From an uncultured Alphaproteobacteria bacterium (GTDB lineage Bacteria; Pseudomonadota; Alphaproteobacteria; RF32; CAG-239): a DNA stretch of 64,000 bases. The position numbers were made by a program, and so were the translations under genes. The first letter of the stretch is position 1. Every line of letters begins with the position of its first letter. Below the pieces are notes generated by a model. That model made no database searches and was not told where the DNA came from. It saw only the letters and a program-made list of their open reading frames with translations. Shown here piece after piece: positions 797-62,178 of the stretch. The stretch lies in contig CABQIK010000007.1 of assembly GCA_902464275.1 (NCBI GenBank), forward strand, positions 8,613-72,612, given 5' to 3'.

Positions 797-1474
797 TTAG
801 TAGTACTTCCATGCTACTACGTTGTTAGAACCGGTAGAGCTACAAGCGTTAACCGCATCGCTAACAGTCATCGGAGCTTTTTTGGTTGCTGAAACAGCGC
901 CCGGAGAAACGACACATGTGTCGGCCGCACACGCTAAGCCGGTATCACCGGTATCTGTTTTAATAGCCTTAGCTTTAGTTGCTGAATTGGCTACATCCTT
1001 ACCGGCAGCAATAGCAATCAAGCCTGATGCCTGACCGGAACCCCAGTCACCGGTTGCAATGGTAACGCAAGCTTCTGACGGCAAACCTTCATAAGTAATA
1101 ACGAAAGCTTCAGAACCGGAGTCACCCGCTGATCTTGCTTCGTCTGATTCAATAGTAACAGCGCCACCGAAAGCGTTTTTAATTGAATAGTTTGAAGCAT
1201 AGGTGTTGTTTGACGCAGCAGCATACATATCATTCGGTACAACGCCGAATTTAATAGCCTGACCATTGTTCAAACCGGCATAGTCACCTTGTGATGAGAA
1301 CAAGGTACGGAGGTTAGCAACGAGCATGGAAACCTGATCAGTAGTTTTGTTGATTTTATATTTGTTCATAGCTTTTGAATAACCGGCAATACCGCCAACC
1401 GACAAAACGCCGATAATCGCCAATACGCCGAGCATTTCAACCATGGAACGACCGTTTTCATTAATGTGTTTCAT
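797..1474 (-). CDS. type IV pilin-like protein, paralog 1 (prepilin-type N-terminal cleavage/methylation domain)
   Basis: N-terminus MKHINENG|RSMVEMLGVLAIIGVLSVGGIAGYSKAM has Gly(-1) and Glu(+5). It aligns with the PilE N-terminal helix. The C-terminal region has Cys pairs. RBS AGGGGA sits 7 nt upstream of the ATG at 1474, and the longer track ORF start is unlikely. Confidence 0.7.
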   Translation of the reverse strand: MKHINENGRSMVEMLGVLAIIGVLSVGGIAGYSKAMNKYKINKTTDQVSMLVANLRTLFSSQGDYAGLNNGQAIKFGVVPNDMYAAASNNTYASNYSIKNAFGGAVTIESDEARSAGDSGSEAFVITYEGLPSEACVTIATGDWGSGQASGLIAIAAGKDVANSATKAKAIKTDTGDTGLACAADTCVVSPGAVSATKKAPMTVSDAVNACSSTGSNNVVAWKYY

Positions 1475-2628: not shown

Positions 2629-3384
2629 ATGTCCGGACATTCCCAATTTAAAAACATTATGTACCGCAAAGGCGCGCAAGATGCCAAAAAAGCCCGCGTT
2701 TTTGCCAAACTTGCTCGTGAAATTACCGTTGCCGCCAAAAGCGGCTTGCCCGAGCCTGATAAAAACCCGCGTTTAAGATTAGCCATTCAGGCTGCCCGCG
2801 CTGAAAGTATGCCTAAAGATAACATTGAACGCGCTATTGCCAAAGCTACTCAAACCGCAGGCGGCGCAGATTTTGTTACCATGCGTTATGAAGGTTTTGC
2901 CCCCAATAAAGCCGCGGTCATTGTTGAAGCTTTAACCGATAACAAAAACCGCACTGCCGGCAACGTCCGCACCATTTTCGGCAAACGCGGCGGCGCCATG
3001 GGTGAGAGCGGTTCCGTTACTTTTAACTTTGAGCGCATCGGTCATATTCAGTATCCTGCCTCAGCCGCTGAAGCCGACAAAATGTTTGAAGCCGCTCTTG
3101 AAGCCGGCGCCAACGATGTTGTTTCAGATGACGAATATCATGAAATTGAAACCTTACCTGATGATTTGGCGATTGTTACCGAAGCTCTTGAAAAACAATT
3201 CGGCACTCCGTCCGTTTCGCGTCTTGATTGGAAACCGACCGTTAAATCTGAAATTAACGATGCCGAAACCGCTCAAAAGTTTTTAGACTTTATTGACGCT
3301 TTAGAAGAAGATGACGATGTTCAACACGTTTACCACAACGCTGAAATCGCCGATTCGGTTTTGGCAGAACTTGCAAAAGAGTAA
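2629..3384 (+). CDS. yebC: YebC/PmpR family DNA-binding transcriptional regulator
   Basis: N-terminus MSGHSQFKNIMYRKGAQDAKKARVF is typical of YebC/TACO1. Conserved yebC-ruvC synteny. Confidence 0.9.
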   Translation: MSGHSQFKNIMYRKGAQDAKKARVFAKLAREITVAAKSGLPEPDKNPRLRLAIQAARAESMPKDNIERAIAKATQTAGGADFVTMRYEGFAPNKAAVIVEALTDNKNRTAGNVRTIFGKRGGAMGESGSVTFNFERIGHIQYPASAAEADKMFEAALEAGANDVVSDDEYHEIETLPDDLAIVTEALEKQFGTPSVSRLDWKPTVKSEINDAETAQKFLDFIDALEEDDDVQHVYHNAEIADSVLAELAKE

Positions 3385-3390
3385 TAAGTT

Positions 3391-3873
3391 TTGGTAAAAA
3401 TTTTAGGTCTTGACCCCAGTCTTTCTTCTACCGGTTGGGGAGTTATTGAAACGGAAAACAACCGTCTGCGTTACATCGCGGACGGTTTTATTCCGACTGA
3501 CCCCAAACTGCCGATTGAACAACGTCTTGACTGCTTGTATCGCGCTATTTGCCGGGTTATTGAAACATACAAGCCTGATGAAGCCTCCATTGAGGTTATT
3601 TTCTTAAACTCTAACCCTAACTCCACCATCAAATTAAGCATGGCGCGCGGTGTGGTGGTGCTCGCTCCCGGAACTTATAACATTCCGCTTTACGAGTATG
3701 AGCCGAACAAAGTTAAAAAAGCCACGGTCGGCGTAGGTAAAGCCGCCAAAGACCAGGTTGAAACCATGGTCAAAATTTTGCTCCCCGGTTGCAAACCCCA
3801 AAACAACGATTCGTCTGACGCTTTGGCAATTGCCATTACTCACGCGCACTTTCGCAATTCGCCCAAAATTTAA
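3391..3873 (+). CDS. ruvC: crossover junction endodeoxyribonuclease RuvC (TTG start)
   Basis: ILGLDPSLSSTGWGVIE catalytic N-terminus. 160 aa. Follows yebC. Confidence 0.9.
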   Translation: MVKILGLDPSLSSTGWGVIETENNRLRYIADGFIPTDPKLPIEQRLDCLYRAICRVIETYKPDEASIEVIFLNSNPNSTIKLSMARGVVVLAPGTYNIPLYEYEPNKVKKATVGVGKAAKDQVETMVKILLPGCKPQNNDSSDALAIAITHAHFRNSPKI

Positions 3874-4802
3874 TTTGTCGGCTTAAAATAACGCCTTTTG
3901 GCGTTTTCGCCTTGTTTTAATCGCCAATATTTTCTAAATTCGCACAAGCTGTTTTGCACATCGTGCAAACATAAATACTTGCCGCCGCAATACGATTCGC
4001 TTTGCCATCTGACCTCGTTCCAATCTTTGTCGGTCGTTTGTTTAAGCTCTGCAAACGCCTGCGGTTGCATTTGCCACAATTTGCGACATTCCGCATCTGC
4101 CTCTTTTTTATTAAGCACGCGCCCGCAAATTATGTTAAGTCCCCAATGCGCCCCCGGACCCACAATTAAAAAATCATTCGCGGTATACGGCACAATATTT
4201 TGAGCATAAGTTGCGTCAAGCAAAATCTGCCCTGCCAAAAACGGCCCCGCTGACGAAACGGCCTCAGCAATAATCTTCAGCCCCTCTTGCGGCGCCGATT
4301 CGCGCAAATTTTTGATTATATCTTCAAGCTTAAAACGCAAATCATTCAGCATCAGCAAAATCTGCACATGCTTATCTTGCGGACGATAATCAGGGTTATA
4401 CGCATGCGCCGTAATTAAATATGCGTTTGAAAAAATGTTGCCTTCTTGTTTTTTGGCGTCAAAACGCTTTTCCAAGGTTTTAAAGTCAAAATTTTGCTCT
4501 GAAAGCAGCCCTCCGAACAAATTTTCAATTGTGTCACGCCGATTAAAAAAGCGGTACGCAATAATATTAAACAACTTTTGCTCCGCCGGCAGCGGCTGCG
4601 CCAAATATTTACCGATGGCAATCGTTCCGCCGTCAAGCTCGCGATACACATTGCAAAATCTGAAATTTTGCAAAACTTCATCATCAGTCCATGGCGCCGG
4701 CAACCCTAAAGCCGTGCGCTTATGCCAAACCGCCTGCCGGTCATATACAAACTCAAAAAATGCCGCGGTCATTTTATCCATTATTCGTCCCCGCCAAGCC
4801 AA
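3870..4802 (-). CDS. conserved hypothetical protein (possible nucleotide/DNA-base modification-like family, unverified)
   Basis: 310-aa ORF with a FRFCNVYRELD motif. It lies between ruvC and recX. No confident family assignment from sequence alone. Confidence 0.55.
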   Translation of the reverse strand: MAWRGRIMDKMTAAFFEFVYDRQAVWHKRTALGLPAPWTDDEVLQNFRFCNVYRELDGGTIAIGKYLAQPLPAEQKLFNIIAYRFFNRRDTIENLFGGLLSEQNFDFKTLEKRFDAKKQEGNIFSNAYLITAHAYNPDYRPQDKHVQILLMLNDLRFKLEDIIKNLRESAPQEGLKIIAEAVSSAGPFLAGQILLDATYAQNIVPYTANDFLIVGPGAHWGLNIICGRVLNKKEADAECRKLWQMQPQAFAELKQTTDKDWNEVRWQSESYCGGKYLCLHDVQNSLCEFRKYWRLKQGENAKRRYFKPTN

Positions 4803-5338
4803 TCTTGCCCCAAAACCTCAGTAACAACTTCATAATCAAAACCGGCGCGGATTAAAGTGCCCATGTCTTTTTGCCGGTTAAGTTTGCGGCTTTCTTCATC
4901 AGGGCGGAACGGACCGATTTTTTTCTTTTTGGCCAGTTTAAGCGCCATTTCTTTAGAGTCATACTCCTGCCGACTTAAAACCTCGTCAATCGTGTTTTCA
5001 TCAACCCCTTTTTGTTTAAGCTTGTTTTTAATGTAGCGCTCCGGCTTTCCGGCATTTAAATAATCGCGCACTTTAAGCGAGGTATAACGCTCATCGTCAA
5101 TATATTTCCAACCGGTAAAATCGCTTAAAATTTCTTCTATCCAACCGTATGCCTCCGCTTTGTTAAAATCAGGGGTCTGATACGCATAATCATTCACCCG
5201 CCGCCGCAGCACCTGCCTTAAATTATCCTCTGACGACTCAAAGCGCTTTAAGTAATATAAACCTATGTTTTTAAGCCTTTGCTTGGTAATTTTGCGCAAT
5301 GCTTTCGGTTTGCGAGGCTGTTCTTCAAAATCTGACAC
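4781..5338 (-). CDS. recX: RecX-like regulatory protein
   Basis: 185 aa, basic, with repeated three-helix-like segments (LRQVLRRRVNDYAY...) typical of RecX. Confidence 0.6.
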   Translation of the reverse strand: MSDFEEQPRKPKALRKITKQRLKNIGLYYLKRFESSEDNLRQVLRRRVNDYAYQTPDFNKAEAYGWIEEILSDFTGWKYIDDERYTSLKVRDYLNAGKPERYIKNKLKQKGVDENTIDEVLSRQEYDSKEMALKLAKKKKIGPFRPDEESRKLNRQKDMGTLIRAGFDYEVVTEVLGQDWLGGDE

Positions 5339-5405
5339 TTGAAAACTCTTTCATTTTACACTAGATTACAACATAACTGAAAGTATAATACAAAGGATTA
5401 ACAAA

Positions 5406-6332
5406 TTGACCAATAAAAATTTTGACACTTGTGTATCTTTTTACACCAACAACGGCGCTTTTATGGGGCGGGTTGTTCGCTTGAACGATGTTTTGCAAAC
5501 CATTTTGGGCAAGCATAATTACCCGCAAGATGTTTCGTCCGCTTTGGCCGAAACTACCGCTTTGTCGGTTTTGCTTGCCGACGCCTTAAAATATAACGGA
5601 TTGTTTACCTTGCAAATTCAGGGCAACGGACCGGTTTCGGTTTTGGTTGCCGATGTTACCTCTGAAGGCAAAATCCGCGCTTGCGCCAAATTTGACGAGC
5701 AAAAATTGGCTGAAGCCAAAAAACTCCGCAAAACCGGCGATATAATTGAAGAGCTTCCGCACCTTGTCGGCGGCGGTTATATGGCGTTTACCATTGACCA
5801 AGGACCTGAAACCGAAACTTATCAGGGCGTGGTTGACCTGCAAGGAAAAACCTTAACCGAACTCGCTTTGCGCTATTTTAAGCAGTCAGAACAAATTGAC
5901 ACTATCTTAAAACTTTTTGTAAAACACCCTGAAGGCGAAAGTCAAAGTTGGCAAGCCGCCGGAATTTTAATGCAAAAAGTTCCGCTTAAAGGCGGCAACG
6001 AGCAAACTCTTGATGAAGAGGCCGTTAAAGAACTTTGGAATGAGGCGGAAGTTTTTGTCGGCAGCTTAACCGATGATGAGATGTTTAACGCCGATTTATC
6101 AACGCCGGAAATTTTACACCGCCTGTTCCACAGCAGCAACCTGCAAATCGGGCGTGAAAAAGCCTATTCTTTCGGGTGCCGCTGTAGCCGCGAAAAACTC
6201 TTGAGCACATTAAGCGCCTTTAAGCCGGAAGAAATTAACGCCATGGCTGAAGATGACGGCAAAATCACCGCGACCTGCAGTTTTTGCTCCGAAAAATACG
6301 TTTTTGATAAAAACGAATTGCTAAAACACTAA
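5406..6332 (+). CDS. hslO: Hsp33 redox-regulated chaperone
   Basis: C-terminal zinc centre CRCSREK...CSFCSEKY (CxC...CxxC) and Hsp33 length. Confidence 0.85.
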   Translation: MTNKNFDTCVSFYTNNGAFMGRVVRLNDVLQTILGKHNYPQDVSSALAETTALSVLLADALKYNGLFTLQIQGNGPVSVLVADVTSEGKIRACAKFDEQKLAEAKKLRKTGDIIEELPHLVGGGYMAFTIDQGPETETYQGVVDLQGKTLTELALRYFKQSEQIDTILKLFVKHPEGESQSWQAAGILMQKVPLKGGNEQTLDEEAVKELWNEAEVFVGSLTDDEMFNADLSTPEILHRLFHSSNLQIGREKAYSFGCRCSREKLLSTLSAFKPEEINAMAEDDGKITATCSFCSEKYVFDKNELLKH

Positions 6333-6424
6333 TTAAGTGCTTGCATAAGCGCAAATTTTGTATTAAATAAAGTTTATCTTAACTTAAAGACAAACTTTTT
6401 AGCTAAAAACAACGGATTAGAAAA

Positions 6425-7033
6425 ATGAACAGATTACATAAAATTTTTGCGGCAGCCGCCGTTTTATTAATCAGCGCCTGCGCCGGTCAAGCCGATGTTG
6501 CCGAACCGCGCCGCTTTACCGAGCCCCGCTTTGACAGCAAACCCAAAATTGAACTTCAGGTTGGCAAAATTGACGTTATTTCTGAATTTACCCCGTCTTT
6601 TACCCGCCCGAATGTTGAGCATCTGTTCCCGATTTCTATTGAAAAAACCGCCCGAATTTGGGCTCATGACCGCTTAGAAGCGGCCGATTTTTCATCTAAC
6701 CGTGTGGCTGAATTTATAATCAAAGACGCCAGCGTTACCGAAACTGAAGAAAAAGCCCCGCAACTGTTTTACAAAGATAACTTAAAATACCGCGCAACTT
6801 TGTCGGTAGTGTTAAAAATCAGTTCCGCCAACGGGCAATCGCAAGCGCAAACTTCTATTGAAGCATGGCGCGAGCTTACCATGCCGATTGACACTAGCAT
6901 TGAAGATAAAGAAAAATACTGGAACGAAATGGTTTATAAGCTCTTTGACGAATTTAACATGCGTATGGAACAAAACATTCACCAATACTTAAATATGTAT
7001 GTTAAAAACAACAATAACATTACCGAATACTAA
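6425..7033 (+). CDS. lipoprotein, function unknown
   Basis: Signal peptide with lipobox LLISAC. 202 aa. Confidence 0.55.
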   Translation: MNRLHKIFAAAAVLLISACAGQADVAEPRRFTEPRFDSKPKIELQVGKIDVISEFTPSFTRPNVEHLFPISIEKTARIWAHDRLEAADFSSNRVAEFIIKDASVTETEEKAPQLFYKDNLKYRATLSVVLKISSANGQSQAQTSIEAWRELTMPIDTSIEDKEKYWNEMVYKLFDEFNMRMEQNIHQYLNMYVKNNNNITEY

Positions 7034-7039
7034 AATTTA

Positions 7040-7064
7040 AGCTCCCGTTCGGGAGCTTTTTTAA
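7040..7064 (+). terminator. rho-independent terminator
   Basis: GCTCCCG-TTC-GGGAGC followed by TTTTTT. Confidence 0.6.
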
Positions 7065-7112
7065 TGCCCGCTTTAACCCTAATTTAAACGATTCGGTGTT
7101 TTAATTTGTTTT

Positions 7113-8393
7113 ATGATAAGCAAATTAAAAAACATATATAAAATTTACTTCAACCGCAAAATGGCGGCTTTAACCGCTTTGGGTTTTGCCAGCGGTTTTC
7201 CGTTTTTGTTAGTGTTCAGCACTTTAAGTTTATGGCTTAAAGAAGCCGGTTGGACTTATGCCGCTATCGGCGCTTTTTCGCTTGTAAAAATTCCGTATGC
7301 TTTTAAGTGGGTGTGGTCGCCTTTGCTTGATAATATCAAACTTCCGTTGCTTTGGCGCTTAGGGCGCCGCCGCAGTTGGGGGCTTTTAATGCAAATTTTG
7401 CTGTTTTTGGCTGTTATGGCCATGAGCGCCGTCAATCCCGAATATCAGCACCGCTTAATTTGGATTTGCGCGGCGGCGGTTTGCTTTTCATCAGCCTCGC
7501 TTGATATTATTCTTGACGCCTATCGGGTTGAAACATTTAAAGACACTCCCAACGAACAAGCATCAGGAGCGGCGGTGTTTGTTTTGGGTTATCGCATCGG
7601 CTTAATTTTTTCCGGCGCCGGCGCATTGTGGCTAGCCACCGTAATGAGTTGGAACAATGTGTATATGATTATGGCATCAGGTTCAATTATCGGCTTTATC
7701 ACCTTATTGCTGATTAAAGAACCGAACACCGGATTTAAATATGCCGCCGCTTCACACAAGCCGATTCGCACTCGCGTAACCGAATTTTTAACCCATTCGG
7801 TTAAAGCTCCGCTCCAAGATTTTACCAAACACAGCCATTGGCCGCTGATTATCTTTTTGATTTTTATTTACCGCATGAGCGACGCATATTTTGCCCCGAT
7901 GTCATTTCCGTTTTATGACGATATGGGATTCAGCAAAGCCGAAATTGCCTATGTTATCAAAATTTACGGCATGGCGGCAACCATTGCCGGCGGACTTTTC
8001 GGCGGAGTGCTGCTCAAAAAAATCGGACTGTTTAAGGGCTTATATTTGTGCGGATTTATTCAGGGCTTAACCACCCTGTTGTTCAGCTTGCAAGCTCTTG
8101 CCGGTCATAATGTGCCACTCTTGACCGTGGTCATCACGCTTGAAAACTTTTCATCGGGTATGGCAACCACCGCTTTTGTTGCCTACATCTCGTCATTATG
8201 CAACGTTCTGTACACCGCCACCCAATACGCGCTACTTTCATCGCTGATGAGTCTGGCGCGCGATGTGTTCTCAGCCACCAGCGGACTGTTGGCGCAACTG
8301 GTTTCATGGCCGATATTTTTTATAGTTGCCGCCGCATTCAGCATTCCCGGAATTATTGCGGTAAAATACCTTTCCAAACACCAAACAAGTTAA
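7113..8393 (+). CDS. ampG: AmpG family muropeptide MFS transporter
   Basis: 12-TM MFS protein. N-terminal LGFASGFPFLL...LVKIPYAFKWVWSPLLD matches the AmpG/PAT signature. Confidence 0.8.
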   Translation: MISKLKNIYKIYFNRKMAALTALGFASGFPFLLVFSTLSLWLKEAGWTYAAIGAFSLVKIPYAFKWVWSPLLDNIKLPLLWRLGRRRSWGLLMQILLFLAVMAMSAVNPEYQHRLIWICAAAVCFSSASLDIILDAYRVETFKDTPNEQASGAAVFVLGYRIGLIFSGAGALWLATVMSWNNVYMIMASGSIIGFITLLLIKEPNTGFKYAAASHKPIRTRVTEFLTHSVKAPLQDFTKHSHWPLIIFLIFIYRMSDAYFAPMSFPFYDDMGFSKAEIAYVIKIYGMAATIAGGLFGGVLLKKIGLFKGLYLCGFIQGLTTLLFSLQALAGHNVPLLTVVITLENFSSGMATTAFVAYISSLCNVLYTATQYALLSSLMSLARDVFSATSGLLAQLVSWPIFFIVAAAFSIPGIIAVKYLSKHQTS

Positions 8394-8433
8394 CCGCCAT
8401 ACTATTTCCGCCCTTCAGTCAGGGTGGTTTAAA

Positions 8434-42090: not shown

Positions 42091-42192
42091 GGTGGTTTAT
42101 ACAACTTATGCACAGCTTTGGACTCGTAAATATTGCAAAAAAAAAACGCGAGCTAAAATCTTCTTAAATTTAACAATTTGAGGAGATTTTTA
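42091..42192 (+). promoter_or_regulatory. orphan copy of the conserved pilin-gene upstream cassette (promoter/5' leader)
   Basis: About 100 nt, near-identical to the sequence 5' of pilin paralogs 2 and 3 (...ggactcgtaaatattgcaaaaaaaaaacgcgagctaaaatcttcttaaatttaacaatttgaggagatttt). Here it is followed by an unrelated short ORF. Confidence 0.6.
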
Positions 42193-42330
42193 ATGTTTAT
42201 CCAAAATATACTAGCTAAGCTTGCGGATGGTGAGGCAGATACGACGGGATTTTGGAGCGACTTGTACACAAAAAGGTACACGAGCGAGAAAATCCCTAGC
42301 AGCTGCCCGCTAGACGCAAGCGTAAAATGA
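42193..42330 (+). other. short ORF (45 aa) or small RNA body driven by the orphan cassette, ending in the 46-nt repeat element and a terminator
   Basis: ATG is placed exactly where the pilin ATG sits in the other cassette copies. It is followed by the 46-nt element (42329..42374) and the hairpin ATACTCAATC-ataa-GATTGAGTAT (42388..42411). Confidence 0.25.
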
Positions 42331-42418
42331 GCTTACAAGCAAGACCGAACCCCGCAGGGGTGAGATTCCCCTCTCGGTTAAAAAAAATACTCAATCATAA
42401 GATTGAGTATTTTTATAA

Positions 42419-42917
42419 TTGGTGGAGCTGAGGGGGCTTGCAGAGTCACAAAAATGTCCGGTGGACATTTTTTGCCGGCAAGCATCAGCTGCTGTTAGCG
42501 AGCGATGAGCCGACAGGCGATAAGAGCGAACGTTACAGCTGCTTGACCGCAGCGCAGTTAGCGACTGCCCTTTGGGCAGAGCTTACAAGCAAGACCGAAC
42601 CCCGCAGGGGTGAGATTCCCCTCTTCTAAAGACACAAAAGCACTTAAGCAAAAGCCTAAGTGCTTAAAAATTGGTGGAGCTGAGGGGGCTTGCAGAGTCA
42701 CAAAAATGTCCGGTGGACATTTTTTGCCGGCAAGCATCAGCTGCTGTTAGCGAGCGATGAGCCGACAGGCGATAAGAGCGAACGTTACAGCTGCTTGACC
42801 GCAGCGCAGTTAGCGACTGCCCTTTGGGCAGAGCTTACAAGCAAGACCGAACCCCTAGGGTTAGATTCCCCTCTTAAAAATAAAAGCACTTAAGCAAAAG
42901 CCTAAGTGCTTAAAAAT
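42419..42917 (+). repeat. two tandem direct repeats of about 250 bp, each starting with a copy of the 3' 17 nt of tRNA-Ala
   Basis: Units 42419..42670 and 42671..42916 are over 95% identical. Each begins TTGGTGGAGCTGAGGGG, which matches the reverse complement of the tRNA-Ala 3' end at 42918. Each contains hairpins (AAAAATGTCC-ggt-GGACATTTTT and CTGCCC-ttt-GGGCAG) and the 46-nt element GAGCTTACAAGCAAGACCGAACCCC(GCAGGGGTGAG)ATTCCCCTCT. Each ends with the hairpin AAGCACTTAAG-caaaag-CCTAAGTGCTT. Confidence 0.85.
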
Positions 42918-42993
42918 TGGTGGAGCTGAGGGGAATCGAACCCCTGACCTCCTCAATGCCATTGAGGCGCTCTCCCAACTGAGCTACAACCCC
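42918..42993 (-). tRNA. tRNA-Ala (anticodon GGC)
   Basis: Minus-strand sequence GGGGTTGTAGCTCAGTTGGGAGAGCGCCTCAATGGCATTGAGGAGGTCAGGGGTTCGATTCCCCTCAGCTCCACCA. G3:U70 Ala identity pair, anticodon loop AUGGCAU, encoded CCA. A hairpin plus T-run terminator lies downstream on the minus strand. Confidence 0.9.
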
Positions 42994-48583: not shown

Positions 48584-48652
48584 ATGAAAATTTGGCATTG
48601 GATAGTTTTACTGGTGTTGGCCTTTGCGCTGATTATCACTTTTGCATATTAG
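48584..48652 (+). other. possible small hydrophobic peptide ORF (22 aa, MKIWHWIVLLVLAFALIITFAY)
   Basis: Strong RBS AAGGAGAAAAGCT before the ATG. A single TM-like peptide. Sits just upstream of pilin cassette copy B. Confidence 0.2.
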
Positions 48653-48750
48653 GCATACAACTTATACACAGCACGGACTCGTAAATATTGCAAAAAAAAA
48701 ACGCGGAGTAAAATCTTCTTAAATTTAACAATTTGAGGAGATTTTAGCTC
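48651..48750 (+). promoter_or_regulatory. conserved pilin upstream cassette, copy B
   Basis: Shares about 95% identity with 42091..42192 and 60511..60622. Contains TTGCAA...TAAAAT promoter-like hexamers and an inverted repeat GAGCTAAAATCTTC / GAGGAGATTTTAGCTC that spans the RBS. Confidence 0.6.
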
Positions 48751-49356
48751 ATGAATACACAATCAGGTCGGTCTATGGTGGAAATGCTCGGCGTTCTTGC
48801 TATTATCGGCGTGCTCAGCGTCGGGGCTATCAGCGGTTACAGCAAAGCAATGATGAAGTACCGGCTTAACAAATATTCTGAACAAATTAACACTGTTATC
48901 AATGCCGTTGCTCGTAATGCCCAGAGCTTTAACAATATGGAAAACGGAACTGACTTAACTGAAACTTTTATCAAAATGGGAGAAATCCCGACTGATATGA
49001 CAAAACCGAATAACTTCACCGGTATATATGATGTTTTTGGGCAAAAATGGCGAATTTTTATCGGTTCAACCGCCACAACAATCTTTTTATCAATGACCGG
49101 CTCATCATTAAAAACTTTATCTGCGGATAATTTAGCCATTTGCCAAACCACATTTACCGTAGCTAAAGAAAATGCCGATAGTATCAGATATATAGAAACC
49201 ATCAGCAATGCCGGAACGGAAAATAAAATTGATAAGGCTTGGTTTGGCGACGCCTATTGCCACCAATCAAATTGCCTGCGAAATTTACTATGGACGGTAT
49301 TTACAATGCCTGCACTGCTCACAAAGGCGTCAATGAACCTATATATTTTCAAATAA
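48751..49356 (+). CDS. type IV pilin-like protein, paralog 2
   Basis: MNTQSG|RSMVEMLGVLAIIGVLSVGAISGYSKAM class III signal and N-terminal helix. C-terminal disulfide loop GDAYCHQSNC. Confidence 0.72.
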   Translation: MNTQSGRSMVEMLGVLAIIGVLSVGAISGYSKAMMKYRLNKYSEQINTVINAVARNAQSFNNMENGTDLTETFIKMGEIPTDMTKPNNFTGIYDVFGQKWRIFIGSTATTIFLSMTGSSLKTLSADNLAICQTTFTVAKENADSIRYIETISNAGTENKIDKAWFGDAYCHQSNCLRNLLWTVFTMPALLTKASMNLYIFK

Positions 49357-49374
49357 CATGGGATAAATAAAACT

Positions 49375-49406
49375 TAAACCCCTGCTTCGGTTAAAAAGCA
49401 GGGGTT
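49375..49406. terminator. bidirectional terminator between pilin 2 and pnp
   Basis: AAACCCCTGCTT-cggttaaaa-AGCAGGGGTTT followed by a T-run. Confidence 0.7.
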
Positions 49407-49427
49407 TATTTTTAAGCTTAACAGCGA

Positions 49428-60399: not shown

Positions 60400-60510
60400 C
60401 TATCCTCTTGATATTAACATACTTATTTTTTTATCCCGAGGCAAGCAATTAATCAAATTAATAAAAAGTATTTCAAAGGTATCGCCAACTCTTCTCTATG
60501 GAAGGATGCC

Positions 60511-60622
60511 GAAGACGGGGTGGTCTTTTGCAACTTATGCACACCCCGGACTCGTAAATATTGCAAAAAAAAAACGCGAGCTAAAATCTTCTCAAAACCA
60601 ACTTTTGAGGAGATTTTAGCTC
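60511..60622 (+). promoter_or_regulatory. conserved pilin upstream cassette, copy C
   Basis: Same element as copies A and B. The inverted-repeat arms are conserved while the loop sequence differs (caaaaccaactttt versus taaatttaacaattt). Confidence 0.6.
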
Positions 60623-61237
60623 ATGAATACACAATCCGGACGTTCAATGGTTGAAATGTTAGGGGTACTCGCGATTATCGGGGTTTTGAGCGTTGGCGCT
60701 ATTTCCGGTTATAGCAAAGCTATGTTCAAGTACAAACTTAACAAACACTCTGAACAGATGAACACGGTAATTAATGCTGTTGCCCGCAACGTACATAGCT
60801 TTGATAACATCAAACAAGATGAAACTTCTTTAACTTCATATTTTATCAAAATGGGTGAAATCCCGACTGAAATGATAAAAACAAACAACAATAACTATGT
60901 ATATGATATTTTCGGACAGCAGTGGCAGATATACTATAGCGAAGGTTTAATATATTTACTCTCATATAGTGAAAACGGTTCATCATTTTTATCTTCAAAC
61001 TCTTCTGACAGTCTGGCAATTTGCCAAAACATTTTAACTACCTCTAAAGAAAATTCTGATAATATACTCGTAATTGCGGCGACTTTAGGCGAGAGCACTA
61101 ATCGCTTATATGGTGATAAATATTGTTCTAGTAATGAAAAATGCCTTAAAAACTTAGCTTTAGACGATATCTATACTTTCTGCGCTGAAAACACAAAAGG
61201 CGGCATAGCGCTATTTGCTATTACTTGGCAACGCTAG
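60623..61237 (+). CDS. type IV pilin-like protein, paralog 3
   Basis: The N-terminal 55 aa are nearly identical to paralog 2. The C-terminus diverges but retains the GDKYCSSNEKC disulfide loop. Confidence 0.72.
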   Translation: MNTQSGRSMVEMLGVLAIIGVLSVGAISGYSKAMFKYKLNKHSEQMNTVINAVARNVHSFDNIKQDETSLTSYFIKMGEIPTEMIKTNNNNYVYDIFGQQWQIYYSEGLIYLLSYSENGSSFLSSNSSDSLAICQNILTTSKENSDNILVIAATLGESTNRLYGDKYCSSNEKCLKNLALDDIYTFCAENTKGGIALFAITWQR

Positions 61238-61312
61238 CAACTGCTTTAAAAAATGAAAAAGCACACGTTTCACAACGTATGCTTTTGGGTTAAGACCTAA
61301 GACCAGGAAGGA

Positions 61313-61765
61313 TTATACTTCGTAAAAATCCTCCACCGGAATTTTCAAGACTATTTTTTTGACATGGGTTGATCCGTTCACCGCCATACCCGGCATGTGT
61401 GCGAGGTCTGGACCGATGATGCAGGCTTCGCCGGCACGAAGAAGGACAGTATCTTTGACCTCTCCGGTCATGAACATGATGTCCTTTGTCTCATCGTACT
61501 CCTGCTCTACCTGAAACTCGTCCGTGATAGGAGCGAAGTGGATGAGTTCTGTACCGGACACGATGATTTGAACGTCCACCATTTTACGATGCGCCTCAAA
61601 GCGAGAGGTGAGTTTTGTCTCATACTCTTCCGCATTTGCGAACCGTCCACCGTCAAAATCGTAACGCTTAGGGACGAAATTCTCCATGAGTCTCTCAACA
61701 AGTTGTAGCATATCTGCCGGAACTTGACCTTGCTTAGCAAGGATTTTTACATTCAAGCTATCCAT
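61313..61765 (-). CDS. YhcH/YjgK/YiaL (DUF386) family protein
   Basis: C-terminal IGPDLAHMPG.....HVKKIVLKIPV matches the YhcH pattern F.P.D.H.PG...IRKIV.K. GC content is clearly higher than surrounding DNA. Start set at MDSLNV because a promoter lies inside the longer track ORF. Confidence 0.5.
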   Translation of the reverse strand: MDSLNVKILAKQGQVPADMLQLVERLMENFVPKRYDFDGGRFANAEEYETKLTSRFEAHRKMVDVQIIVSGTELIHFAPITDEFQVEQEYDETKDIMFMTGEVKDTVLLRAGEACIIGPDLAHMPGMAVNGSTHVKKIVLKIPVEDFYEV

Positions 61766-61787
61766 AAAAATAAAATTTGCAATTATG

Positions 61788-61816
61788 CTTATACCGCGTA
61801 TGGACTTTTTTGTCAA
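61788..61816 (-). promoter_or_regulatory. sigma70-like promoter TTGACA-N17-TATAAG for the YhcH-like gene
   Basis: On the minus strand, TTGACA (61816..61811) and TATAAG (61793..61788) are separated by 17 nt, about 20 nt upstream of the chosen ATG. Confidence 0.5.
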
Positions 61817-61943
61817 TATATTTTTGCAGAAATCAGGCAATTTTATTTATATTCGTAAATTTTATGTCAAAAATTACCTGATTATTAAAAAAATACTCTT
61901 GACAAGCCGCGTTTAATGGCGTATACAACACTCACTTTTACAT

Positions 61944-62020
<77 letters not shown>

Positions 62021-62178
62021 ATAAAACTAAAATACGCCCGTTCGTAAGAATGGGTGTGTTTTTGTTTTAAATGTGTTGCAAGGAGTTGAACCAACGAAAA
62101 AAGTTGGTTCACTACAAGCGAAAGGCAGGAGCAACATTAGCCGATTAGTACAGCATAATTACATCAACCGGAGAAAAA

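Follow-up and report, generated by a model that had tools for sequence, protein, structure and literature searches.

In uncultured gut Alphaproteobacteria, a near-identical module of about 95 nt lies ahead of pilin-like genes in dozens of copies per genome, and its 3' half forms an inverted repeat that buries the SD sequence whenever both arms are present on one RNA. The most fitting description is that of an SD-sequestering stem embedded in the promoter of a multicopy expression cassette. It varies known designs of translational occlusion and of phase-variable promoters; the variant itself is new, and a literature search on the protein family, the peptide motif and the cassette sequence found no report of it. 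With a probability of roughly 0.4, the stem is proposed to act by IS10-style fold-back inhibition of read-through transcripts, possibly combined with phase variation through an A-tract in the promoter spacer.

Three cassettes and their inverted repeats

Within the window, i.e. the whole 64,000-nt stretch of DNA analysed here, a 31-nt core (GGACTCGTAAATATTGCAAAAAAAAAACGCG) occurs in identical form at 42120, 48675 and 60548, where the chance expectation is none, and marks three cassettes on the plus strand, termed copies A, B and C. Alignment of the three copies sets their common start at an (A)TACAAC motif located at 42099 in A, 48655 in B and about 60529 in C, and the same 5' conservation boundary is sharp at TACAAC in 112 copies; the start at 60511 that had been given in the original prediction lies outside the conserved cassette.

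Copy C (60529..60622), which reads as a promoter-leader module, extends from block 1 (TGCAACTTATGCACA) to the base preceding the ATG. It comprises a candidate -35 hexamer, TTGCAA (60561..60566), an A10 homopolymer (60565..60574) that provides most of the hexamer spacer, and a candidate -10 hexamer, TAAAAT (60582..60587), placed inside the 5' arm of the hairpin (60578..60597). This arm is followed by the loop CCAAC (60598..60602) and by the 3' arm (60603..60622), which contains the SD sequence GAGGAG (60607-60612) and whose last base adjoins the ATG of pilin-like gene C (60623..61237, 204 aa, with the leader MNTQSG ahead of RSMVEM...). Copy B (48655..48750) has the same layout, with TTGCAA at 48688-48693, the A10 tract at 48692-48701, TAAAAT at 48709-48714, the 5' arm at 48706..48725, the 3' arm at 48730..48750 and the SD at 48735-48740, and precedes pilin-like gene B (48751..49356, 201 aa). 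The outer GGAGT of its 5' arm pairs imperfectly; this arm had been given as GAGCTAAAAT and actually reads GGAGTAAAAT, with GGAGT in place of GAGCT. In copy A (42099..42192), TTGCAA is found at 42133-42138, A10 at 42137-42146, TAAAAT at 42154-42159 and the 5' arm at 42155..42170, while the 3' arm (42175..42190, SD at 42180-42185) is of a short form, ...GAGGAGATTTT-TAATG, which is the usual one ahead of genes with long leaders.

The inverted repeat is real in all three copies. Its arms comprise 20 nt at 95% complementarity around a loop of 5 nt in C, 17 nt at 88% complementarity around a loop of 4 nt in B (48709-48725 / 48730-48746), and 16 nt around a loop of 4 nt in A; in B the stem can be extended to 20 imperfect pairs (48706-48750), the outer four to five pairs being the imperfect ones. 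RNA folding yields -28.2 kcal/mol for C, -19.4 kcal/mol for B and -14.7 kcal/mol for A, with z-scores of -8.4, -5.0 and -4.0, respectively, and none of 200 shuffles folded as well. The SD lies within the 3' arm throughout, and in B and C the stem reaches the base preceding the ATG. A loop that varies between copies had been predicted as well, and its sequence indeed differs between C and A/B. On the other hand, the stretches compared (caaaaccaactttt versus taaatttaacaattt) are mostly inner stem, formed by CAAAA/TTTTG in C and by TAAATT/AATTTG in A and B, so that the real loop measures only 4-5 nt, and the inner-stem differences between C and A/B consist of a compensatory A-T to T-A swap and a C-G to U.G change.

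Folding predicts that the SD is unpaired with a probability of only 0.0002-0.0028 at 25 to 50 C in all three copies, and that it opens to 3-29% only at 80 C. The proposed sequestration of the SD is thereby borne out for any RNA that holds both arms, and according to these models an mRNA that always carried both arms should be close to untranslatable, even though the genes behind the cassettes are for the most part intact.

Conservation of pairing and the molecule in which it acts

Across 144 copies, which represent 123 distinct hairpin regions, pairing rather than sequence is maintained, as had been suspected from the three window copies. Standard pairs occupy 85.2% of 2434 stem cells, compared with 40-63% when the partners are slid by 1-3 columns, and the 15 core pairs are paired in about 95% of cases. 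Covariation amounts to 0.170 against 0.137 in shuffles, a value that none of 500 shuffles reached, though the copies compared are related through descent and gene conversion. One pair covaries fully (AU in 58, UA in 32), and several others change via G.U. The diverged copy L151 retains a stem of -27 kcal/mol through two-sided changes (AAAATTCTCTC/GAGAGAATTTT), while a hairpin is weak or missing in about 10 of the 144 copies, which carry TACAAT and TAATAT variants of the -10 box.

The type of mismatch tolerated differs markedly between the strands. Because mismatches of the core stem are of the G.U type in 210 cases and of the A.C type in only 19, the plus strand appears to be the one that is kept foldable; the purine-rich SD constrains the 3' arm and may account for part of this asymmetry, which nevertheless amounts to 97 versus 17 when the two SD wobble columns are left out. 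Such a pattern argues for a hairpin of RNA, or at least of the single-stranded plus strand, and against a minus-strand terminator, a cruciform or a protein-binding palindrome.

A dispersed cassette family of pilin-like genes

The idea of a device shared by the pilin repertoire proved to hold far beyond the three copies of the window. When a 20-mer from the core was scanned against one genome per species, at least 96 stretches were obtained, nearly all of them from four gut MAGs, which are labelled Alphaproteobacteria or Proteobacteria and in one case Lachnospiraceae, the latter being syntenic with the window at 85-88% identity. The four MAGs hold at least 35, at least 45, at least 21 and at least 14 copies. 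In addition, a protein-based metagenome scan, which is independent of the cassette sequence, revealed the same cassette ahead of almost all close homologs. Nearly every copy is located upstream of an ORF with the motif G followed by RSMVEMLGVLAIIGVLSVGAI, and the downstream ORFs are mostly intact; their leaders are either short (MNTQSG, MYTQSG, MKSENG) or measure 40-70 aa. In a few cases the gene downstream is a different one, encoding a Cys-rich secreted protein, a GT2 glycosyltransferase or a 194-aa secreted protein.

The protein family comprises more than 7,288 matches, which are mostly unnamed and lack a precomputed Pfam domain. Its members are called pilin-like on the basis of a class III signal motif, sub-threshold profile matches and a modelled helix. 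In this motif, MNTQSG followed by RSMVEMLGVLAIIGVLSVGAI, the leader ends in G, a Glu occupies position +5 and a hydrophobic N-terminal helix follows, for which structure prediction gives 48 residues. The N_methyl profile scores 17 bits against a cut-off of 21.2, and NCBIfam prepilin matches stay well below their cut-offs. The head is modelled confidently (pLDDT 82.5) and does not resemble the globular head of known pilins: a PDB fold search with the modelled head returned no match at E < 0.1, and phmmer returned TcpA alone at E = 0.08. No prepilin peptidase or assembly machinery is found among the ten annotated genes of the window, where each pilin gene stands alone amid housekeeping genes (H+-PPase, Fic, UvrD, PNPase, SppA, Sir2). 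A third paralog (797-1474, minus strand) is devoid of a cassette.

The candidate promoter and the predicted start

The combination TTGCAA-N15-TAAAAT occurs in the window at the three cassettes and nowhere else. In the -10 box, the A at the second position is invariant (123/123), and the first, fifth and sixth positions are nearly so; the variants TACAAT, TAATAT and TAGAAT keep TAnnnT, with the exceptions of L151 (CAAAAT) and L069 (TAAAAA). Moreover, an A is present 7 nt beyond the -10 box in all -10 variants read, even where the six intervening bases differ. In copy C this A lies at 60594 on the plus strand and constitutes the predicted transcription start under a sigma-70 reading; an RNA starting there is unstructured (-2.6 kcal/mol, z-score +0.8). 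A diverged copy ahead of a non-pilin gene, L086, has lost GACTCGTAAATA and the A-tract and retains block 1 (AACTTATGCACA), an anti-SD/SD pairing over 7 bp and TTGCAA-N16-TAAAAT.

The hexamers of the cassette are good ones, and canonical sigma-70 promoters seem to operate in the host, judged from a consensus match (TTGACA-16-TAATAT) ahead of tRNA-Ala and from TTGTTT-17-TATAGT, recognised by eye, ahead of the cassette-less pilin. The 15-bp hexamer spacer found in about 80% of the copies is poor for sigma-70, and an automatic sigma-70 scan did not flag the cassette since it accepts spacers of 16-18 nt only. Despite this spacing, these patterns favour a sigma-70-like promoter, TTGCAA-(A8 CGCGAGC)-TAAAAT, with the -10 box in the 5' arm and a predicted start at about 60594, over an ECF-like one. 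The latter, TACAAC-N18-CGTAAA with a start at the A-tract and the stem in every mRNA, is possible and fits the sharp conservation boundary, although its spacing is long and L086 lends it no support; in the window it was found at the cassettes and at one chance match, with no further copies. A sigma-54 reading of GG...TTGCA was rejected, as its GG and GC lie 13 nt apart and a spacing of 10 is required.

Proposed fold-back inhibition of read-through transcripts

As the candidate -10 box is situated inside the 5' arm, the cassette's own mRNA may lack this arm, and folding would be confined to read-through RNA. The proposed mechanism builds on this arrangement. The inverted repeat constitutes the 3' half of a module of about 95 nt, taken as an expression module, ahead of each pilin-like gene. 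At its 5' end the module has a conserved block that may be the site of a regulator, TACAACTTATRCACA-N5/6-GACTCGTAAATA, followed by the candidate sigma-70-like promoter composed of TTGCAA, a spacer of A10 plus CGCGAGC, and TAAAAT. A 6-nt discriminator, the predicted start at A (60594 in C) and a short leader with a strong SD would complete the module. Accordingly arranged, the 5' arm would coincide with the -10 box and the discriminator, and the 3' arm with the SD and the spacer up to the ATG. Transcripts from the module's own promoter would be without most of the 5' arm, thus have an open leader and be translated. Transcripts entering from upstream, on the other hand, would carry both arms and fold into a stem of 15-20 bp and -13 to -30 kcal/mol, with the SD hidden inside it and the AUG directly at its end, leaving the pilin untranslated. 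Each paralog would then be expressed by the decision of its own promoter alone, to which the A-tract in the spacer may add an ON/OFF control by slipped-strand mispairing. The analogy to fold-back inhibition of IS10/IS50 is drawn because the favoured promoter would leave own transcripts open and read-through transcripts closed.

The genomic context makes read-through plausible for copy B as well as for about 40% of the copies overall. Copy B begins 2 nt past the stop codon of a co-oriented small ORF behind uvrD, with no terminator-like hairpin in those 2 nt, and for 37 of 92 copies the preceding 80 nt contain the end of a co-oriented ORF of 80 aa or more. Tandem pilin arrays were considered as a source of read-through and set aside, as a cassette directly behind another pilin gene was found in only 7 of 97 cases. 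Upstream of many cassettes lies a terminator or else a palindromic element rich in GC, which likewise counts against read-through. The string GGGAATTTTAAAGTGCGG, which recurs upstream, belongs to a palindromic intergenic element and not to a pilin 3' end.

Confidence in fold-back inhibition is limited to the value given above because hairpin strength is independent of context, i.e. does not differ whichever way the upstream gene is oriented (p = 0.52), and because tandem pairs are rare. Further observations count against it: the 15-bp spacer is poor for sigma-70, the conserved block 5' of TTGCAA could hold another promoter, which would place the hairpin in every mRNA, L151 keeps its stem though both hexamers are degraded, and the hairpin is weak or missing in the roughly 10 copies mentioned above.

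The main rival, which is rather unlikely, assumes an earlier transcription start, ahead of the 5' arm and driven for instance by TACAAC-N18-CGTAAA, so that every pilin mRNA is silent until its obligatory leader hairpin is opened by RNase III acting on the duplex of about 20 bp, by a helicase or by a 5'-arm-binding RNA or protein. It would explain why the whole stem, including the bases of the putative -10 box, shows G.U-tolerant, RNA-type conservation, and why the stem of L151 persists without hexamers. The outer GAGCT/AGCTC pairs kept in about 40% of the copies, the variant ahead of the Cys-rich protein, in which the pairing AGCTAAAAT/ATTTTAGCT is kept with the SD outside the stem, the sharp boundary at TACAAC together with the invariant GACTCGTAAATA block, and the strong translational repression by a comparable leader stem of IS200 (see below) point in the same direction. 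However, the AAC...CGT spacing of 18-19 nt exceeds the 16-17 nt usual for ECF promoters, and L086 preserves TTGCAA and TAAAAT but not CGTAAA at the right spacing. Besides, a block of -20 to -30 kcal/mol on presumably abundant structural proteins would require an opener that acts on all paralogs alike.

The A-tract in the candidate promoter spacer

The homopolymer between the candidate hexamers TTGCAA and TAAAAT, which were assigned by sequence only, varies in length among copies and strains around a strong mode. Among 104 tracts counted, A10 was encountered 82 times (79%), A9 15 times, A11 four times and A12 and A7 once each, the remaining A4 belonging to a chance match outside the cassettes (L006). 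Orthologous pairs may differ by one base, as seen for L177 (A9) and window copy C (A10) and for L032 (A9) and L094 (A10). A spacer of 16-17 bp was observed in one to three copies of three MAGs, including one copy upstream of a non-pilin gene, and in no copy of the fourth; the diverged non-pilin copies L086 and L001 have a 16-bp spacer. This distribution is consistent with most copies being switched off and few being switched on, by analogy to the indels in the promoter spacers of vlp, maa2 and vmm, but the narrow mode at A10 could equally reflect a functional length. Exact-protein look-ups for a strain-level comparison of the A-tract returned only contigs identical to the window.

A more far-reaching and rather doubtful reading regards the cassettes as self-insulated, switchable units for at least 35 pilin-like surface proteins and as a new system of antigenic or phase variation in commensal gut bacteria. 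Within it, slippage of the A-tract would set the hexamer spacing, with 15 bp off and 16-17 bp on. The hairpin would keep silent paralogs from being translated out of read-through RNA, and recombination between the identical cassettes would shuffle leaders and heads.

Mosaic cassettes and the remnant behind copy A

Orthologs at the same genomic position differ in cassette sub-variant and leader type, and clustering by upstream or downstream sequence gives few clean orthologs and instead shows that the sub-variants are mosaic. Near-identical mature parts are joined to different leaders, and synteny with related MAGs breaks off at cassette positions. Evidently, the left half of the cassette, which is identical, and the conserved coding region for the N terminus serve as substrates for recombination.

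Copy A had been regarded as an orphan driving something else. Its ORF (42193..42330) is in fact the remnant of a long-leader pilin gene, whose 45-aa leader, MFIQNILAKLADGEADTT...DASVK*, is cut just before the G and RSMVEM junction by a tandem array of 2.4 copies and 252 nt that contains 3' fragments of tRNA-Ala. The same leader is intact in L078, L029, L016 and P0001/L177. P0001 is the sister-strain ortholog of locus C; its mature part is 98% identical and carries the leader of the copy-A type. At this locus (L177), the flanks are the same as in window C, the A-tract is one base shorter (A9, against A10), and the switch in sequence falls at the hairpin loop.

Half cassettes were also observed (L077, L041, L068, L125), in which the A-tract abuts other GC-rich hairpins with T-runs, which are bidirectional terminators. 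More simply, they represent deletions that fused the A-tract to the terminator of the pilin gene itself.

Readings at the DNA level, on the opposite strand and by temperature

It is improbable that the repeat acts as double- or single-stranded DNA, be it as an operator for a dimeric repressor (-10 to +30), as a supercoil-driven cruciform hiding the -10 box or as a recombination hotspot where exchangeable promoter and leader modules join. The overlap with the candidate -10 box and start site, the AT-rich and near-perfect repeat with its short loop, and the exact switch at the loop between L177 and window C, along with mosaic sub-variants at orthologous positions, would suit such an element. An operator, which the original prediction had offered as the other option, is unlikely because the arm-to-arm spacing varies with loops of about 4-12 nt across copies; the fixed spacing and conserved half-sites of a site for a dimeric regulator were not found, and substitutions are either compensatory or G.U-biased on one strand. 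Since every G.T tolerated on the plus strand is an A.C on the other, the hairpin that a cruciform would need on the bottom strand is not maintained, and the module swaps are explained by ordinary homologous recombination between the shared regions named above.

Less probable still is an intrinsic terminator on the minus strand, where the stem followed by GCG and T10 would stop antisense transcription out of the pilin gene. The fold of -25.2 kcal/mol (z-score -4.9) ahead of U10 and the terminators joined to the A-tract in half cassettes speak for it, but the stem is rich in A and U and separated from the U-tract by 3 nt, nearly all copies have A.C mismatches on that strand, the half cassettes are simpler as deletions, and genes B and C are already followed by bidirectional terminators (49375-49408 and 61257-61286).

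Finally, the RNA thermometer that had been envisaged, or any temperature-responsive switch, is effectively refuted in silico: the SD lies in a 5' hairpin whose stem ends at the base preceding the AUG, as in ROSE and fourU thermometers, in which the SD is likewise paired, but with less than 0.3% of it unpaired from 25 to 50 C there is no gradual melting in the physiological range, and the long, nearly perfect stem is far too stable and devoid of destabilising internal mismatches. No match of the ROSE or FourU type emerged from Rfam, which at gathering thresholds returned nothing except two tRNAs and in a permissive scan (E up to 10) only sub-threshold, miRNA-like hairpins.

Significance and comparison with known systems

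If the proposed mechanism is true, it shows how a bacterium insulates dozens of near-identical promoters from their genomic surroundings and reveals a large, unannotated repertoire of variable surface proteins, with more than 7,000 homologs, in gut Alphaproteobacteria represented by metagenomes only. In practical terms, cassettes break assemblies, as many contigs end inside them, and can mislead gene callers on start codons and leader peptides. Many of the cassette copies collected here are located at contig ends. With a cassette of about 95 nt, reporter constructs with altered A-tracts or arms are simple to build.

The closest parallel is provided by IS10 and IS50, whose read-through transposase transcripts are reportedly subject to fold-back inhibition. 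As in the cassette, the 3' arm of a repeat is said to lie over the ribosome-binding site. Native transcripts are said to lack the 5' arm and RNA from outside to fold and become untranslatable, as is proposed for the cassette. In contrast, the cassette precedes pilin-like genes instead of transposases, is present in dozens of copies per genome, has a longer stem of 15-20 bp and relies on a predicted start. It may thus work like the fold-back of IS10/IS50 and is yet no member of this group, as neither an insertion sequence nor a transposase is involved.

Leader stems that occlude the SD in cis are exemplified by IS200, where a stable stem-loop in the tnpA 5'UTR sequesters the SD and blocks 30S binding (PMC4513863). 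The cassette resembles it in the occlusion itself. The stem of IS200, however, is part of the native mRNA and keeps expression very low, whereas the same arrangement in the cassette would silence structural genes unless an opener intervened.

With regard to the spacer, promoters with homopolymeric tracts are described for vlp of Mycoplasma hyorhinis, maa2 of M. arthritidis and vmm of M. mycoides, in which spacer indels switch transcription, while the T-tract of vpma serves as a counter-example without a switching role (PMC2268961). As far as these families are portrayed there, they share with the cassette a multigene family of surface proteins, a conserved 5' region and a homopolymer in the -35/-10 spacer, which in the cassette is a candidate one. 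The cassette differs in that its tract is short (A10) and strongly modal, and in its hairpin, an SD-sequestering structure not being among the features described for the mycoplasma families in the portion of that source consulted.

Rearrangement at pilin loci

Synteny between the window and related MAGs, which share 91-95% identity with it, stops near cassette C, at around 60477, as seen in comparison with the loci L008 and L069 of other MAGs. In L069, the homologs of window 2704-8429 and 61244-62129 are joined, and a cassette with a pilin pseudogene lies between them. Rearrangement endpoints thus coincide with pilin loci.

At copy A, the pilin gene is cut off by a tandem array (42329-42933; 2.4 copies of a 252-nt unit), which is adjoined by an intact tRNA-Ala gene on the minus strand (42918-42993). 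Every copy of the unit carries the tRNA-Ala 3' end (tggtggagctgagggg) together with a terminator-like hairpin. The array looks like the scars of repeated integration or excision at a tRNA attachment site.

Among the loci of other MAGs, 'half cassettes' were observed at L077 4066-4138, L041 7996-7938 (minus strand), L068 747-789 and L125/L126 about 1473-1569. Here, a bidirectional terminator, consisting of a GC-rich hairpin with a T-run behind it, directly follows the left block and the A-tract in place of the cassette hairpin and the pilin gene. Deletion between A-runs probably removed the pilin gene, yet the A-tract constitutes the junction in every case.

Elements surrounding the cassettes

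Many cassettes are preceded by an intergenic palindrome that is rich in GC and about 45 nt long (…AATTCCCCTCTATGGAGGGGTGCCGAAGGCGGGGTGGT…), in either orientation (window 60490-60527; L009 5035; L042 896; L078 2083; L157 1215; L107 705; L026 7652). Often, a block 1 copy (TACAACTTATRCACAGC) stands on each side of it, and the combination of block 1 and this element also precedes unrelated sequence. Between uvrD and cassette B, a small hydrophobic ORF of 22 codons (MKIWHWIVLLVLAFALIITFAY; 48584-48652, plus strand) features its own SD, and the cassette starts 2 nt past its stop codon.

A third pilin-like paralog of 225 aa (MKHINENG|RSMVEM...; 797-1474, minus strand) is devoid of a cassette. By eye, a canonical TTGTTT-17-TATAGT promoter is recognizable upstream, as is an inverted repeat (AATATTTT/AAAATATT), the SD staying in the loop.

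Pilin family and taxonomic labels

For pilin C (60623-61237; homologs P0001-P0120), the globular head was modelled at high confidence, and a search of the PDB for a structural match to the pilin C head found none. The family comprises more than 7,000 members, almost all unnamed and without a Pfam domain. At least 45 cassettes reside in the MAG 'Lachnospiraceae bacterium H07603-L1_cleanbin_000017' (CAVBCV01; e.g. L035, L049). This MAG shows synteny with the window (85-88% nucleotide identity), and its label Lachnospiraceae is probably wrong.

Inverted repeats inside long leaders

The leader remnant of MFIQNIL type behind cassette A (42193-42330) contains the inverted repeats TCCAAAAT/ATTTTGGA and GGGATTTT/AAAATCCC, as well as a CTAGC...GCTAG stem. 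In long-leader pilin genes outside the window (L102, L104, L111, L121, L135, L140, L158, L167 and others), the 40-70-aa 'leader peptides' are composed of in-frame N8-TCAAG-N8 modules. Examples are CCATCGGG/CCCGATGG, CACTCCGG/CCGGAGTG and TTATCGGG/CCCGATAA, which translate to DHRVKPDGD, DTPVKPECD and DYRVKPDND, respectively. In 92 of roughly 100 modules, the two 8-mers are perfect complements of each other, and at least six self-complementary variants occur. This pattern amounts to strong covariation, within a coding region, for nucleic-acid hairpins.
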